From IMG/VR virus record IMGVR_UViG_3300019487_000004, positions 1-64,000 of that record: a DNA stretch of 64,000 bases; one strand, 5' to 3'. This DNA comes from a virus. The notes under the pieces were generated by a model, which was not told the DNA's origin, searched no databases, and saw only the letters and a list, made by a program, of their open reading frames with translations. Positions 18,435 to 19,150 of this stretch are shown one piece after another; the stretch's first letter is position 1, and every line of letters begins with the position of its first letter. Made by a program: the position numbers and the translations under genes.

Positions 18435-18451
18435 AAAAATCGGGAGCAGTC
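18435..18451 (-). terminator. possible end of tRNA-like array (closing helix strand followed by a U5 tract)
   Basis: Minus strand GACUGCUC-CCGA-UUUUU immediately 3' of the last element. Confidence 0.3.
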
Positions 18452-18571
18452 GAGGAGCAGCGTGGAGTGACCTCTTGCGAGGAGCACAGGATTCGAACCT
18501 GTTACTTTCATCTTATCAGGATGACGCTCTACCAATTGAGCTAGCTTGTACACGCTACGTAGGGACTGCTC
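18444..18571 (-). tRNA. tRNA-like element B1: Ile(GAU)-type body, acceptor capped by GCAA and split at positions 4/5, leader/trailer module
   Basis: Minus strand has D arm GCUC-AAUUGGUA-GAGC, anticodon arm UCAUC-CUGAUAA-GAUGA and T arm ACAGG-UUCGAAU-CCUGU. Positions 66-72 (GCUCCUC) pair with AGC upstream plus GAGG located after the GCAA loop. Flank helices are AGCGUG/CACGCU and GAGCAGUC/GACUGCUC. Confidence 0.55.
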
Positions 18572-18576
18572 TCGGA

Positions 18577-18710
18577 GCGGGGTACAGGAGTCGAACCTGT
18601 CGTCGTGTAGATGCGTATGAGGTGATCGGCGTGCCGATCGAGGATGCGCATCGGAATGTCTTTTGACTTTCGTGGAAGGAAAGCGCCAGCACCGGCCGGC
18701 AAGACCCCGC
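18577..18710 (-). tRNA. tRNA-Gly(UCC)-like gene with a 61-nt structured insertion between anticodon stem and T arm (element A1)
   Basis: Acceptor GCGGGGU/ACCCCGC, discriminator U, anticodon loop CUUCCAC, T arm ACAGG-UUCGACU-CCUGU. The insertion contains GAUGCG..GAUCGG-CACG-CCGAUC..CGCAUC-UACA. Confidence 0.65.
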
Positions 18711-18720
18711 GTAAATGATC

Positions 18721-18850
18721 GAAGCGGCCGAGGAGCACAGCGTAGTGTTCACCTTGCGGTGCGCACGGGATTCGAACCCGTAACATTCAGCTCCATAGGC
18801 TGTCGGTCTACCATTGACCTAGCGTGTTCGCTGGGCGGTGTGGCCGCTTC
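18721..18850 (-). tRNA. tRNA-like element B2: permuted-type acceptor (GCAA cap, split 4/5), anticodon loop CUAUGGA
   Basis: D arm GGUC-AAUGGUA-GACC, T arm ACGGG-UUCGAAU-CCCGU. Positions 66-72 (GCGCACC) pair with CGC upstream plus GGUG after GCAA. Flank helices are CAGCG/CGCUG and GAAGCGGCC/GGCCGCUUC. Confidence 0.55.
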
Positions 18851-18855
18851 GTTCG

Positions 18856-18985
18856 TCGGGGAACTAGGAGTCGAACCTAGCTGTCGTGTAGATGCAGTCG
18901 AGTGATCGACATGTCGATCGAGAGGCAGCATCGAAGCTTTTATGCTTGATCCAATATCAAGTGCCGCCCACGCGGCTTTTCCCCG
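18856..18985 (-). tRNA. tRNA-like gene with a 58-nt insertion (element A2), anticodon loop UAUUGGA (UUG if read canonically)
   Basis: Acceptor CGGGGAA/UUCCCCG, discriminator A, T arm CUAGG-UUCGACU-CCUAG. Insertion GAUGC..GAUCGA-CAUG-UCGAUC..GCAUC-UACA. Confidence 0.55.
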
Positions 18986-19027
18986 AGAAGTGTTTTCGTC
19001 GTCGTCAGCTATTCGGTTGTCAGGCGG

Positions 19028-19150
19028 CGGTGGAACTTGGAATCGAACCAAGTCAACTTGTAGACGATCAAGAGTGACGAGCGTGCTCGTCGAGGGCGAA
19101 CGTCGGAACAACGGCTTTCACACCGTCTGGCCTCCAAGGCCAATTCCACC
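19028..19150 (-). tRNA. tRNA-like gene with a 51-nt insertion (element A3), 8-nt anticodon loop UGUGAAAG (GAA/Phe-like)
   Basis: Acceptor GGUGGAA/UUCCACC, discriminator G, D arm GGCC-UUGGA-GGCC, T arm CUUGG-UUCGAUU-CCAAG. Insertion GACG..GACGAG-CACG-CUCGUC..CGUC-UACA. Confidence 0.55.

Follow-up and report, generated by a model that had tools for sequence, protein, structure and literature searches.

An array of six small RNAs on the minus strand

The window analysed here, a viral DNA stretch of 64,000 nucleotides (positions 1 to 64,000 of IMGVR_UViG_3300019487_000004), contains five neighbouring minus-strand units, A to E, of 123-135 nt each between positions 18444 and 19150, as the earlier note on this DNA had described. 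A sixth copy of the structure that they share, unit F, is located just beyond this interval at 19158-19243 on the same strand, so the count of five holds for 18444-19150 but not for the locus. The spacers between units are 3-10 nt long, and all units fold as described below, with z scores of -2.9 to -5.1 against shuffled sequences. Every RNA of the array combines one conserved stalk with a tRNA, a tRNA mimic or, in unit F, small hairpins only.

Conservation suggests that a promoter drives the six small RNAs, the array together with this promoter covering 18444-19281 (minus strand). The putative promoter, TTGACA-N17-TAGAAC (19253-19281, minus strand), was assigned from this conservation: the element was kept 5' of the arrays in the related contigs L001, L089, L091, L149, L152 and L153, where TTGACA-N17 is followed by TAGAAC, TAGACT, TAGGTT or CAGAAT. 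A simple sigma-70 scanner made no call at 19253-19281 because the -10 element lacks a terminal T. Upstream of the promoter lies a hairpin, UUGCCAC...GUGGCAA (19289-19316, minus strand), conserved at the nucleotide level in L001, L091 and L089 despite differing upstream reading frames. At the other end of the array, a U tract (18431-18439) follows unit E, and such a tract was found after each end-closed unit.

Units A, B and D carry the stalk as a capped hairpin

These three units have the capped module hairpin in the variable region, between the anticodon arm and the T arm. The D arms of these units are compact and non-canonical, with 5-6-bp stems and 3-4-nt loops. Unit A (19028-19150, minus strand), a linear tRNA-like RNA, has a 6-bp D stem with a 3-nt loop, an 8-nt anticodon loop and the T loop UUCGAUU, and ARAGORN gave it a 4-nt anticodon, UGAA, only once the module was deleted. 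Its module, GACGUUCG-CCCUC-GACGAG-CACG-CUCGUC-ACUCU-UGAUCGUC-UACA (19059-19104, minus strand), scored 59.3 bits with R1, the covariance model of the stalk. The inner hairpin GACGAG-CAYG-CUCGUC is common to unit A, B' and D' of L001, and H1 of L089.

Unit B (18856-18985, minus strand) has the same linear arrangement, with a 5-bp D stem, a GUGG loop and the anticodon loop UAUUGGA (anticodon UUG); its module is GAUGCUGC-CUCUC-GAUCGA-CAUG-UCGAUC-ACUCG-ACUGCAUC-UACA (18887-18932, minus strand; 54.6 bits with R1), and its ortholog B' in L001 shows compensatory changes. Unit D (18576-18710, minus strand), again linear with the capped stalk in the variable region, has a 6-bp D stem, a 4-nt loop and the anticodon UCC, and carries the module GAUGCGCA-UCCUC-GAUCGG-CACG-CCGAUC-ACCUC-AUACGCAUC-UACA (18606-18652, minus strand; 51.1 bits with R1). 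It is a member of a conserved class of Gly-UCC paralogs (L091 U2, L151 h2) that differs from canonical tRNA-Gly(UCC).

The Rfam tRNA model (RF00005) did not match A, B or D. ARAGORN called a tRNA in all seven hairpin-form units tested after the module was removed and in none of the seven when intact. The boundaries of the module in A, B and D are nevertheless undefined, hundreds of deletion variants being accepted by ARAGORN. Single-stranded linkers flank the stalk in the variable-region units, 6-14 nt long 5' of it and 5-13 nt or more 3' of it; exact excision would not give a normal variable loop of 4-5 nt.

Units C and E are circularly permuted and unit F has no tRNA body

Units C and E are built differently. 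The module halves are located at the two ends of the unit and enclose the tRNA body, which is circularly permuted at acceptor nt 4/5: it begins at nt 5 and ends with nt 72, G, CAA and nt 1-4, so that the order is D arm, anticodon arm, T arm and an acceptor capped by GCAA. The 4/5 split was verified.

Unit C spans 18721-18850 (minus strand). The 5' strand of its stalk, GAAGCGGCC-ACACC-GCCCAGCG-AACA (18825-18850, minus strand), is followed by the permuted tRNA part (18750-18824, minus strand), which scored 46.1 bits with the Rfam tRNA model over model positions 5-66 only. This part starts with nt 5-7 (CGC), the D arm, the anticodon arm (loop CUAUGGA, anticodon AUG) and the T arm, and continues with the acceptor 3' strand GCGCACC, G73, the CAA linker forming a GCAA tetraloop, and nt 1-4 (GGUG). 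The 3' strand of the stalk, AACACUA-CGCUGUGC-UCCUC-GGCCGCUUC (18721-18749, minus strand), closes the unit. Rearranged, unit C gives a full cloverleaf, His-AUG.

Unit E (18444-18571, minus strand) has the same plan: the stalk 5' strand GAGCAGUC-CCUAC-GUAGCGUG-UACA (18547-18571, minus strand), the permuted tRNA part (18471-18546, minus strand; Rfam tRNA 51.7 bits, positions 5-66), and the stalk 3' strand UCACUC-CACGCUGC-UCCUC-GACUGCUC (18444-18470, minus strand; z = -4.3), which leads into the U tract. The tRNA part consists of nt 5-7 (AGC), a canonical D arm, the anticodon arm (GAU) and the T arm, then the acceptor 3' strand GCUCCUC, G73, CAA and nt 1-4 (GAGG), and its rearranged product is of full length. 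When run on the intact array, ARAGORN reported unit E only, as Ile-GAU at 18479-18549 with a mis-assigned acceptor stem.

Unit F (19158-19243, minus strand; z = -5.1) is an end-closed stalk with no tRNA body. Its strands pair as CCCGCGCU / AGCGCGGG and GUCGACCU / AGGUCGAC on either side of the internal loop ACCGA / GCACUC, with GACA at the junction, and it encloses only AGC, a UGCC-GCAA-GGCA hairpin and 23 nt. Similar units were observed in L089, L130 (u6) and L152.

The earlier note had described one insertion shared by five normal class I tRNAs with canonical D and T arms. Its T loops were as stated, but canonical D arms occur only in C and E and not in A, B or D, and none of the units A-E presents RF00005 with a complete cloverleaf in linear order with its acceptor. 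Its statement that 72-73 nt are left once the module is deleted describes a simple deletion only in A, B and D, where the boundaries are undefined; C and E require rearrangement. The five units differ in build, two being permuted and end-closed and three having capped hairpins with non-canonical D arms or anticodon loops, and unit F, like the enclosed and truncated tRNAs of relatives described below, also speaks against a simple insertion into tRNAs.

The stalk is a conserved and covarying RNA structure

The helix sequences, loop sequences and (U/A)ACA tetranucleotides quoted in the earlier note are all present in the units, and its proposal that the helices covary was borne out. The larger set that was analysed comprises 27 copies on 8 contigs of related large phages. 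In this set, all 14 stalk pairs covary, with 91.5% paired cells vs 54% in shuffled alignments and at most 42% in slid controls. A smaller set, comprising the window and three relatives, showed double-sided changes in 14 of 14 pairs (93% paired vs 62% shuffled). G-U pairs in the stalk make the structure strand-specific. The module, with its two helices, is under selection as an RNA structure and goes together with tRNA-like genes.

A better description of the anatomy than the one in the earlier note is that of a symmetric internal loop, 5x5, with an outer segment of eight positions leading to NACA. The inner or terminal helix has at least 6 bp, its first pair being G-C. The internal loop is free of G, with 5'-NNCUC-3' facing 5'-AYYNN-3'. 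The outer helix of 8 positions is a fixed ruler from this loop to NACA, beyond which lies an A/C-rich unpaired junction with an invariant ACA. CUC and ACA were each found in 27/27 copies, and the L3 strand of the loop starts with A in 24/27, in the standardised alignment A5, from which the irregular copy C' of L001 was left out (in A2, where one C was dropped, it reads CACA). The L5 strand is most commonly ACCUC, otherwise UCCUC or CACUC. The loop had been said to end in YCCUC; this fails for unit B (CUCUC), and the true invariant is CUC. End-closed stalks measure about 22 bp-equivalents (9 + 5 + 8), roughly two helical turns.

Model R1 gave no further match in 345 kb, no Rfam family matched the module even at E<=10, and signature scans of 185,579 genomes and JGI metagenomes returned chance matches inside coding genes only. 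The earlier note could name no described class that fits; there is indeed no such Rfam family, but the bacterial Y RNAs known as YrlA are a described class of the same design. Overall, the original observation was partly confirmed and its interpretation partly supported.

The stalk is joined to tRNAs in several ways in related phages

Comparative analyses showed that, in this phage group, the stalk is wired to tRNAs in at least four ways. The acceptor-4/5 permutation was found in C, E, U1, U3, L130 u4 and L130 u5. When C, E, U3, L130 u4 and L130 u5, which represent two lineages and have 3'-to-5' linkers of 3, 11 and 22 nt, are rearranged, each yields a 7-bp acceptor split exactly at nt 4/5, fully paired in C, E and u4 and with an A:A or A:G mismatch at 5:68 in U3 and u5. 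Units permuted in the variable region occur in L149, L151 and L152; they have the order T arm, capped acceptor and D arm, plus an extra anticodon arm, and contain an internal (N)CCA. The stalk also surrounds complete, non-permuted tRNAs (L130 u3, with an encoded ACCA, and L152 u3). In two distant phages, it sits on acceptor stems truncated to 4 bp (L089 P1 and the L151 unit at 15996-16125), and the stalks on these truncated acceptors stay perfect.

The array of a single genome can have seven or more stalk-bearing RNAs, all with different complete anticodon arms. Dozens of canonical tRNAs are present in the same phage clusters, and none has a stalk. An uninterrupted ortholog, or empty site, was looked for in relatives and none was found. 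The module-bearing units look non-decoding or redundant, as indicated by A34 anticodons (AUC, AUG, ACU), compact D arms, the 8-nt anticodon loop, and canonical tRNAs with the same anticodons in related phages. Because the stalk varies in position (variable region, acceptor 4/5, beyond the termini, on truncated acceptors or with no tRNA), an autonomous handle fits better than an intron.

Neighbouring genes include a probable Ro60-like protein

The array begins about 0.7 kb downstream of a gene for a ThiF-family E1-like protein (19916-20494, minus strand; Pfam ThiF, E 3e-22; NCBIfam matches TcdA and UbaA), and the same order, array after ThiF, was observed in related phages. Further upstream, 9.5 kb from the array, lies a gene for a 643-aa protein (28634-30565, minus strand) composed of an N-terminal beta domain, an alpha-helical repeat region and a C-terminal VWA domain. 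Searches of this protein against Pfam and PDB sequence profiles detected VWA only and not TROVE. Its AF2 model (pLDDT 76, pTM 0.45) had as best Foldseek matches in the PDB the TROVE domain and Ro60, with E ~6e-7 but TM of 0.24-0.29, in alignments of 540-580 columns covering the full length of the protein. At the level of fold, the protein is thus a probable Ro60/Rsr-like TROVE+VWA protein, and we regard it as a candidate partner of the stalk. A review of jumbo phages mentions TROVE proteins in some of them, and a tRNA-like partner in cells (PMC7824862).

Orthologs of this gene accompany every array on long contigs. The block of Ro-like gene, p363, JAB, ThiF and array was found at 7 of 8 loci with 49-70% protein identity, the Ro-like gene being 3-10 kb from the arrays in these seven. 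The arrays are always located 3' of a block encoding the probable Ro60-like protein, a ubiquitin-like candidate, JAB and ThiF. L150 has the gene block and no array, and relatives with only a 777-aa VWA gene (L002, L092-L094) have neither block nor modules. About 600 nt from the Ro60-like gene is a gene for a HAD_SAK_2 phosphatase, a 'Swiss-army-knife' RNA-repair HAD (27477-28028, minus strand; Pfam PF18143, E 1.3e-26), which is also near the Ro60-like gene in L001 and L149; at the equivalent place, Rctr197k has a 'HAD hydrolase-like protein' with no tblastn match to the HAD of the window.

The RNAs resemble bacterial Y RNAs

In YrlA RNAs, the two ends of the molecule pair into a stalk with two helices and a conserved internal loop; a capped, permuted tRNA mimic is present as well, and the 5' strand of the stalk carries the conserved Rsr-binding motif GNCGAAN0-1G (PMC4201824). 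The capped acceptor of YrlA from Mycobacterium smegmatis is 7 bp long; RNase P cleaves it, and CCA is added in vivo (PMC4201824). The phage RNAs resemble YrlA (RF02553, with Rsr/Ro60 partners) in being RNAs of about 90-135 nt with several members per genome, in a two-helix stalk made from the RNA ends around a conserved internal loop, in a circularly permuted tRNA-like domain, whose T arm, capped acceptor and D arm stand in this order in the L149, L151 and L152 units and not in C and E, and in an RNA-repair context with a probable TROVE+VWA protein, here Ro60-like by fold only. The end-formed long stem with internal loop is found in C, E, F and all end-closed relatives, and not in A, B and D.

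The two sets also differ. The phage stalk has the G-free 5x5 NNCUC/AYYNN loop and the 8-bp ruler to ACA, the phage tRNA part retains a complete anticodon arm, and the entry point of the stalk is the variable region, acceptor 4/5 or a place beyond the termini instead of the anticodon stem. The phage set further includes non-permuted hairpin-form units with free acceptor ends. Whereas rsr is usually adjacent to Y RNA genes, the phage Ro-like gene lies at a distance of 3-10 kb, and its divergence puts it out of reach of Pfam TROVE. Membership in the YrlA family itself was rejected: the best Rfam YrlA matches, 20.2 bits (E 0.21) at 18713-18809 and 16.8 bits at 18526-18600, fall below the gathering score of 69, and the Rsr motif was found in 0/24 stalks (partial GNCGAA in 2/24 vs a shuffled expectation of 0.67).

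We put at roughly even chances that the RNAs are phage Y-RNA-like tRNA mimics whose stalk serves as a protein-docking handle. What supports this reading is the YrlA-like design, with its end-formed two-helix stalk, conserved internal loop, permuted tRNA-like domain, several paralogs per genome and a U tract after each end-closed unit, together with the variable placement of the stalk, the non-decoding or redundant look of the units, the fold matches to TROVE/Ro60, the conserved gene block and the RNA-repair HAD beside the Ro-like gene. What the analysis shows directly is the RNA structure with its covariation and constant geometry, the different topologies, the synteny and, at the level of fold, the resemblance of the 643-aa protein to Ro60; binding of this protein to the stalk, persistence of the stalk in the mature RNA and the function of the particle are inferred from there. 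The handle would most likely dock the co-encoded, probable Ro60-like TROVE+VWA protein, and the RNAs would be phage counterparts of bacterial Y RNAs. Once the stalk had loaded the Ro-like protein, the tRNA module could tether the particle to tRNA-recognising factors, such as RNase P, the CCA-adding enzyme, modification or repair enzymes, or host tRNA-targeting nucleases, which would place the system within an RNA-repair and translation-protection island. Against this reading, the Ro60 identity appears at the fold level only and the gene is not adjacent to the arrays; moreover, the association may be inherited gene order, since the co-occurring loci all come from one phage group with conserved synteny. 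The missing Rsr motif, the low Rfam YrlA score and the array-free block of L150 also count against it.

Y RNAs and Ro60, a major autoantigen, are conserved from bacteria to humans, and we know of no established role for the tRNA-like part of bacterial Y RNAs. The Y RNA/Ro60 theme seems to have been enlarged in this phage group, where the arrays occur alongside very large tRNA clusters, an E1/JAB/ubiquitin-like set, an RNA-repair phosphatase and a divergent protein that is probably Ro60-like. Should the stalk be a handle for the Ro-like protein, it would be a new RNA recognition motif for the TROVE family, a concrete and testable job for tRNA mimicry would be suggested, for example baiting or repairing the damage of host tRNA-targeting defences, and dozens of unannotated gaps in jumbo-phage tRNA regions, including those of GenBank KX853510, would be explained.

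Alternative explanations for the stalk

A different explanation, which we consider unlikely, is that the module is excised like an intron, the stalk marking the splice sites in the way known for the bulge-helix-bulge of archaea and red algae. The cut at the stalk base, for example after ACA, would be made by an endonuclease or by the RNA itself, the tail of the 5' exon would be trimmed and an RNA ligase would join the exons. This would make A, B and D interrupted tRNA genes, and C and E permuted genes whose circular intermediate would be opened at the GCAA joint by RNase P and 3' processing. The ARAGORN calls obtained in 7/7 hairpin-form units only after module removal are consistent with this, as are the 7-bp acceptors split at 4/5 that rearranged C, E, U3, L130 u4 and L130 u5 regain, the internal (N)CCA of the variable-region-permuted units, the 3' boundary NACA at a fixed 8-position distance from the loop, which resembles a measured cleavage site, and the RNA end-healing HAD encoded nearby. 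With the stalk gone, the 4/5 nick would sit in a perfect duplex, the preferred substrate of Rnl2-type ligases.

However, the stalk also flanks complete non-permuted tRNAs that need no splicing (L130 u3 with ACCA, L152 u3), the 4-bp truncated acceptors (L089 P1, L151 15996-16125) can never yield a tRNA, and F and L130 u6 lack a tRNA body. Between the end of the 5' exon and the stalk there are from 5 to 14 nt, variable loops would be abnormal after excision, A34 anticodons would miscode and the relatives provided no empty-site ortholog. Among 80 predicted proteins of the window (Pfam; 64 of 138 kb), neither an RNA ligase nor RtcB nor a splicing endonuclease was found. As a motif, the stalk differs from the bulge-helix-bulge, and it matches no known ribozyme family: hammerhead, HDV-like, twister, pistol, hatchet and hairpin ribozymes had no Rfam hit at E<=10 in 18300-19350, and the loops lack G, a catalytic residue in most small ribozymes. 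The intron-like reading is no longer the best one, though still a serious rival. As the earlier note had held, a group I intron can be rejected as well, with no RF00028 hit at E<=10 for a 46-nt module located in the variable region or acceptor stem.

The likeness to the bulge-helix-bulge of archaea and Cyanidioschyzon merolae is that one element serves both as an internal insertion and as the paired termini of permuted tRNA genes, that the 3' half comes first and is joined to the 5' half by a short linker, sometimes with CCA, and that the element occurs at several tRNA positions. Permuted gene order with complementary termini was likewise observed in C, E, U1, U3, L130 u4/u5 and the L149, L151 and L152 units. 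The motif itself was rejected: instead of two 3-nt bulges 4 bp apart, there are the 8-position helix, the 5x5 loop and the A/C-rich junction. Bulge-helix-bulge introns have no sequence invariants, unlike the phage stalk with its CUC, A and ACA, and the phage element, which here belongs to a bacteriophage with no splicing endonuclease among the 80 window proteins, also encloses complete tRNAs, truncated tRNAs and non-tRNA hairpins.

It is rather doubtful that these are bona fide phage tRNA genes, interrupted and circularly permuted, in which the stalk is a new excisable element and ligation gives functional tRNAs. The 7-bp acceptor reconstitution, N73 and the CCA encoded in several units also fit genuine tRNA genes. 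Such a pathway would use an unknown endonuclease or self-cleavage, with a circular intermediate for the permuted genes and possible chaperoning by the Ro60-like protein and RNA-repair enzymes. If it existed, it would be a bacterial-virus counterpart of the archaeal and eukaryal tRNA splicing pathway, and excision of the module would make it a new tRNA splicing system in the bacterial world.

It is improbable that the stalk is a retained arm for another partner or role, such as the ThiF/JAB/ubiquitin-like system, a tRNA-modifying enzyme, the 777-aa VWA protein or an anti-Shine-Dalgarno-like decoy. The array is directly downstream of ThiF in every phage, nearer than the Ro-like gene, and the ThiF family includes tRNA-modifying E1-like proteins (the NCBIfam TcdA and UbaA matches). 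For a decoy, the L5 strand, ACCUC, UCCUC or CACUC without G, is suggestive, its commonest form ACCUC being the 16S rRNA 3' core, complementary to GAGGU. None of these partners is specifically supported, an internal 5x5 loop is a poor seed for mRNA pairing, and L002 and L092-L094 have the 777-aa gene but no modules.

Generic processing signals, in which the paired leader and trailer and the capped hairpins would serve only to have a polycistronic transcript cut by a host double-strand RNase such as RNase III, seem quite improbable. Parallels are rRNA processing stalks and the RNase III sites of phage T7, the latter with an internal loop; the end-closed stalk, with its 22 bp-equivalents over roughly two helical turns, has such a loop too, neighbouring units are separated only by the 3-10-nt spacers, and an end-closed stalk starts a few nt past the 3' end of the preceding unit. 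Yet strict CUC, A, ACA and G-free loops at 49-70% divergence exceed what RNase III needs, dozens of canonical tRNAs in the same clusters lack the stalk, cleavage of a hairpin-form stalk would halve A, B and D, and the F-type and truncated-acceptor products have no obvious use.

Chance inverted repeats, or a DNA-level miniature mobile element in tRNA genes, can hardly explain the stalk: the inner hairpin shared by A, B', D' and H1 suggests copying between sites, but simple insertion cannot produce permuted and enclosing topologies, the scans of 185,579 genomes and JGI metagenomes gave only chance coding-gene matches, G-U pairs imply strand-specific structure, and many different helix sequences covary.

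Relation to other tRNA-like RNAs

The T4 RNAs encoded by rnaC and rnaD (species 1 and 2) are similar as 119-139-nt tRNA-like RNAs in a tRNA cluster of a distantly T4-like phage; they have other folds, with no CUC/A 5x5 loop and no ruler-spaced ACA, and model R1 found no match in the T4 region/L095. The two-piece tmRNA of alphaproteobacteria and cyanobacteria is also a tRNA-like RNA from a permuted gene with pieces held by base pairing, but it has an mRNA-like reading frame, pseudoknots and alanine aminoacylation, and has neither this stalk motif nor an arrangement in arrays. tRNA-Sec and allo-tRNAs, with a 6-bp D stem, a 4-nt loop and a long variable arm, resemble A, B and D in the compact D arm and the long extra arm at the variable position. 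Unit D scored 31 bits with the tRNA-Sec model, below the gathering score of 47, and the match contains a 63-nt insertion; in these units, a two-helix module of 45 nt on long single-stranded linkers makes up the extra arm, and the anticodons of A, B and D are not UCA.

In the literature, we found no earlier report of circularly permuted tRNA or tRNA-like genes of phages with three different breakpoints. Permuted and stalked units of this kind are missed or mis-called by standard tRNA finders.

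A covarying stalk of fixed geometry

The earlier note had described five tandem tRNA-like elements sharing a two-helix RNA module. We found every sequence quoted there in the window, and the observation proved to be real and wider than first stated; the anatomy required correction, as the units are built differently. The module runs, 5' to 3', from an A/C-rich flank usually ending in YC through an 8-position outer segment, NNCUC, an inner helix, a 5-nt loop AYYNN and a second 8-position outer segment to NACA. The inner helix has at least 6 bp and begins with a G-C pair. CUC and ACA showed no variation among 27 standardised copies, an alignment that excludes the irregular copy C' of the related contig L001, and G occupied 0 of 120 positions in the first loop and 7 of 120 in the second. 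The outer segment has a constant length of 8 positions, completely paired in end-closed units and carrying 1-3 mismatches beside the loop in hairpin-form units.

Covariation of the module was strong. In alignments registered by hand to the structure, 93.4% of cells were paired in 14 copies from 4 contigs, compared with 61.9% in shuffles, and double-sided changes were observed at all 14 pairs. With 27 copies from 8 contigs, 91.5% of cells were paired, against 54.0% for shuffles and no more than 42% for slid controls; there were 157 double-change cells, and the inner helix was 100% paired. A covariance model built from 12 hairpin-form copies and run over 345 kb recovered the catalogued copies only, the next match having E = 0.8. 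The module matched no family in Rfam 15, even at E<=10; known ribozymes, CRISPR repeats and the Tymovirus tRNA-like element were rejected as identities, their Rfam scores being at noise level.

Organization of the array and wiring of the stalk to the tRNA part

On the minus strand, a promoter-like element TTGACA-N17-TAGAAC (19281-19253) precedes six units packed with small gaps from 19243 to 18444: F (19243-19158), A (19150-19028), B (18985-18856), C (18850-18721), D (18710-18576) and E (18571-18444). The folds of all six gave z-scores of -2.9 to -5.1 against dinucleotide shuffles. Just upstream of the promoter, a hairpin UUGCCAC...GUGGCAA (19316-19289, minus strand) is conserved at the nucleotide level in the related contigs L001, L091 and L089 despite differences in the reading frames upstream; an operator is one possible role, termination of the upstream gene another. 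A small upstream ORF was rejected as a handle on a partner protein because its conservation, restricted to the last ~16 codons in differing frames, belongs to this hairpin.

Standard tools barely detect these units. ARAGORN run on the intact array called E alone, with a mis-paired acceptor stem; the Rfam tRNA model matched C and E at model positions 5-66 only, that is, without the acceptor stem; and D gave a tRNA-Sec match in Rfam that was below threshold and carried a 63-nt insertion.

The five tRNA-like units are not built alike: A, B and D are linear with a capped stalk, and C and E are end-closed and permuted. In A, B and D, the acceptor 5' strand, D arm, anticodon arm, a linker of 6-14 nt and the capped stalk are followed by NACA, 5-6 further nt, the T arm and the acceptor 3' strand. 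The D arms of these units are compact, with a stem of 5-6 bp and a loop of 3-4 nt, and unit A has an anticodon loop of 8 nt. In units C and E, the 3' strand of the inner helix comes first and its 5' strand last. Their interior begins at acceptor nt 5, passes the D, anticodon and T arms, and continues along the acceptor 3' strand into G73-CAA-nt1-4, so that a GCAA tetraloop closes the acceptor stem. Treated as permuted genes and rearranged accordingly, both formed complete cloverleafs; the 7-bp acceptor stem was intact in each, with its split exactly at nt 4/5 (between GGUG and CGC in C, and between GAGG and AGC in E). Unit F lacks a tRNA body: its end-closed stalk encloses a 4-bp GCAA hairpin and another small one.

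Related arrays in distantly related large phages

The window belongs to a phage contig of 138 kb. Flanking proteins used as handles led to homologous arrays in L001 (IMG/VR, 121 kb), L089 and L091; a corrected pattern scan for end-closed units (spacing 34-37 nt) led to L130 and L136; and the Ro-like protein encoded near the array led to L149, L151, L152 and L153 (GenBank KX853510, Virus Rctr197k). These relatives are distantly related large phages with 49-70% identity between shared proteins, 52-63% GC and conserved local gene order; the idea that L130 and L136 represent an unrelated lineage was rejected, since they are a distant relative with shared synteny. Orthologous units, such as B and its counterpart B', showed compensatory changes in the tRNA stems and full turnover of the stalk helix sequences.

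At least four wirings of stalk to tRNA, circular permutation among them, were observed across these phages. In the first, the stalk is a capped hairpin in the variable region. In the second (L149, L151 and L152), the stalk is end-closed and the tRNA is permuted in the variable region, in the order T arm, acceptor 3' strand, (N)CCA or a short linker, acceptor 5' strand, D arm and anticodon arm. The third, found in the window, L091 and L130, has an end-closed stalk and permutation at acceptor nt 4/5, the linker being 3, 11 or 22 nt long. In the fourth (L130, L152, L089 and L151), the end-closed stalk lies beyond the acceptor end, which belongs to a complete tRNA-Val with encoded ACCA in L130 unit u3 (69 bits), has a full 7 bp without CCA in L152 unit u3, and is cut down to 4 bp in L089 unit P1 and one L151 unit, a truncation thus conserved in two distant phages. 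F-like units without a tRNA body were also present in L089, L130 (u6) and L152. The capped arms of at least 11 bp in L130 u4 and u5 were considered as proof of a non-tRNA nature, which we withdrew: when the 7-bp acceptor is counted from the T stem, the break falls at nt 4/5 and the surplus pairs form a linker hairpin.

The record of L153 (KX853510.1, 173300-197165) gives the Ro-like ORF no more than a misc_feature label, 'similar to conserved hypothetical protein'. This ORF is preceded by about 40 canonical tRNA genes, and the stalk RNAs after the ThiF gene appear as unannotated gaps among annotated tRNAs.

The array DNA had no similarity match in 50,697 phage records. A scan of the viral collection with the hairpin-form signature gave L001 as the sole true match; about 80 other viral loci were rejected because their helices were not complementary, and the promising matches L040 and L044 because tRNA flanks were absent. 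The signature had no match in JGI metagenomes and two in 185,579 genomes, both within an isoleucyl-tRNA synthetase gene and attributable to chance. No relevant paper on phage tRNAs that are permuted or carry small introns came up in literature searches.

A probable Ro60-like protein encoded in a conserved gene block

The arrays sit just downstream of a block encoding a 643-aa VWA protein (28634-30565, minus strand, in the window), a protein of 310-363 aa, a JAB protein and a ThiF-type E1. The AlphaFold2 model of the 643-aa protein (pLDDT 76) has a C-terminal VWA domain preceded by a beta domain and a long helical-repeat region. Among PDB folds, the best matches were a TROVE-domain structure and Ro60 (9kop, 1yvp, 9nfa, 9nep and 2i91), which aligned over 540-580 columns with E ~6e-7 and ranked above every VWA-only match. 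We grade the protein as probably Ro60-like, because the TM-scores of these matches were low (0.24-0.29) and sequence methods (phmmer, NCBIfam and profile against PDB) recognised the VWA part alone, with no similarity to Ro60. The protein has at least 1,425 homologs. A HAD_SAK_2 'RNA-repair' phosphatase gene lies ~600 nt from the gene of this protein.

The ThiF-type E1 (19916-20494), the JAB-domain protein (22507-23301) and the 363-aa protein (24968-26059), the C-terminus of which is weakly MoaD/ThiS-like (E 0.3), occupy a conserved place in the related phages, with the Ro-like gene on one side and the RNA array on the other. They may constitute a ubiquitin-like conjugation system or a sulfur-carrier system, the latter perhaps for tRNA thiolation.

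A 777-aa protein with an N-terminal VWA domain (phrog_2426, 15419-17752) also adjoins the array. It was rejected as the linked protein: its ~52%-identity relatives had no tRNAs or modules nearby, and relatives carrying this neighbour alone had neither block nor modules. More distant relatives (~34% identity), annotated as hypothetical or 'MIDAS-containing', occur in T4-like Slopekvirus (KP15), Rhizobium and many enterobacterial phages.

Resemblance to Y RNAs and alternative explanations

Ro60/Rsr binds Y RNAs, and bacterial YrlA consists of a two-helix stalk, made by the ends of the RNA and bearing a conserved internal loop, and a permuted tRNA-like domain of T arm, capped acceptor and D arm (PMC4201824). 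In M. smegmatis, the capped acceptor of YrlA has 7 bp, is cut by RNase P and gains CCA in vivo; Yrn1 of D. radiodurans has a different arm order, including an 'anticodon arm' (PMC4201824). A survey found TROVE proteins in some jumbo phages; the partner in cells is tRNA-like, and a phage partner RNA was not described (PMC7824862). The design of these RNAs matches that of YrlA closely, and the Y RNA/YrlA class is the nearest known kind. Membership of the YrlA family is not supported: the Rfam model scored 20 bits on the array, where 69 are required, and none of the 24 stalks tested had the Rsr motif GNCGAAN0-1G. Unlike YrlA, this family has its own stalk motif and breakpoints, retains complete anticodon arms, includes a non-permuted hairpin form and is organised in arrays. 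T4 rnaC and rnaD were rejected as homologs of the units.

We propose, at what we judge to be even chances, that the stalk stays in the RNA and would dock the Ro60-like protein, with the tRNA module tethering the particle to tRNA-recognising factors. As with M. smegmatis YrlA, RNase P might open the capped 7-bp acceptors, cutting C and E at the predicted site between the A of GCAA and G1, and the particle could serve to repair RNA or control its quality, or to bait host defences that target tRNAs.

The best-surviving alternative, that the module is excised and the tRNA spliced, is in our view unlikely. Removing the module from A, B, D and their homologs yields tRNAs that ARAGORN calls, and the permuted units reconstitute acceptor stems; splicing would be predicted to join GCAAGAGG to AGCUAGCUC in E and GCAAGGUG to CGCUAGGUC in C. 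However, the stalk also flanks complete tRNAs, occurs without any tRNA, and stays pristine on truncated acceptors, from which no tRNA can ever form. Because the single-stranded linkers are long and of variable length, excision would leave no normal variable loop. Module-bearing units form a separate paralog class with compact D arms, and the empty-site ortholog that we looked for was not found, since the canonical tRNA-Gly(UCC) of the phage group has a normal D arm. Odd A34 anticodons (AUC in three phages, AUG and ACU) recur beside canonical tRNAs for the same amino acids. The motif is neither a bulge-helix-bulge nor a match to a known ribozyme, and a Pfam scan of the 80 window proteins revealed no ligase or splicing endonuclease. 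A simple intron reading is thus not favoured, and a phage tRNA splicing system working on interrupted and permuted tRNA genes seems fairly improbable.

It is quite improbable that the arm is retained for another partner, such as the adjacent ThiF/JAB system, or for an anti-Shine-Dalgarno-like role of the ACCUC loop. The module's MazF-type motif coincidences (UACA, UUCC and CCUC) and resemblance to the 16S rRNA 3' end we take to be a minor rival. A generic RNase III-type processing stalk is also quite improbable, and the chance of an artefact or mobile DNA element is very small.

Anticodons, repeats and neighbouring genes

A34 anticodons in module-bearing units were AUG in unit C (within 18750-18824), ACU and AUC in L001 C' and D' (L001:8404-8548 and 8550-8708), and AUC in L089 H1 (L089:3043-3175) and L152 u3 (L152:14790-14913). 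The AUC loop, CUAUCA(A/C), is conserved despite differing stalk topologies. A class I release factor gene directly follows the L151 array (L151:16670-17353), L151:8405-8482 is a tRNA with a 4-nt anticodon, and L130 unit 2 (L130:1926-2059) has the anticodon loop AUUUAGA with an ochre-suppressor-like UUA; together with the 8-nt loop of unit A, these are hints of recoding.

Directly upstream of a truncated hairpin-form unit, L089:2318-2600 contains a mini-array of five direct repeats of ~42 nt, spaced 51-72 nt, with the core ATGTCTGCGGAAGCGACCTTGGCTTCCGACC containing a GGAAGC...GCTTCC hairpin. A group I intron (Rfam, 71.8 bits) beside a LAGLIDADG-like ORF was found in a 222-kb relative (L093:20156-20477). 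The window also carries genes for a tyrosine integrase (34604-35587) and a D12-class adenine methyltransferase (80-586). HNH endonuclease genes repeatedly adjoin regions of tRNAs and stalk RNAs (L088:1-223; L130:3000-3630; L149:2089-2631; L151:4347-4814, 8945-9481 and 12849-13433), and may be one reason why units turn over so fast between related phages.
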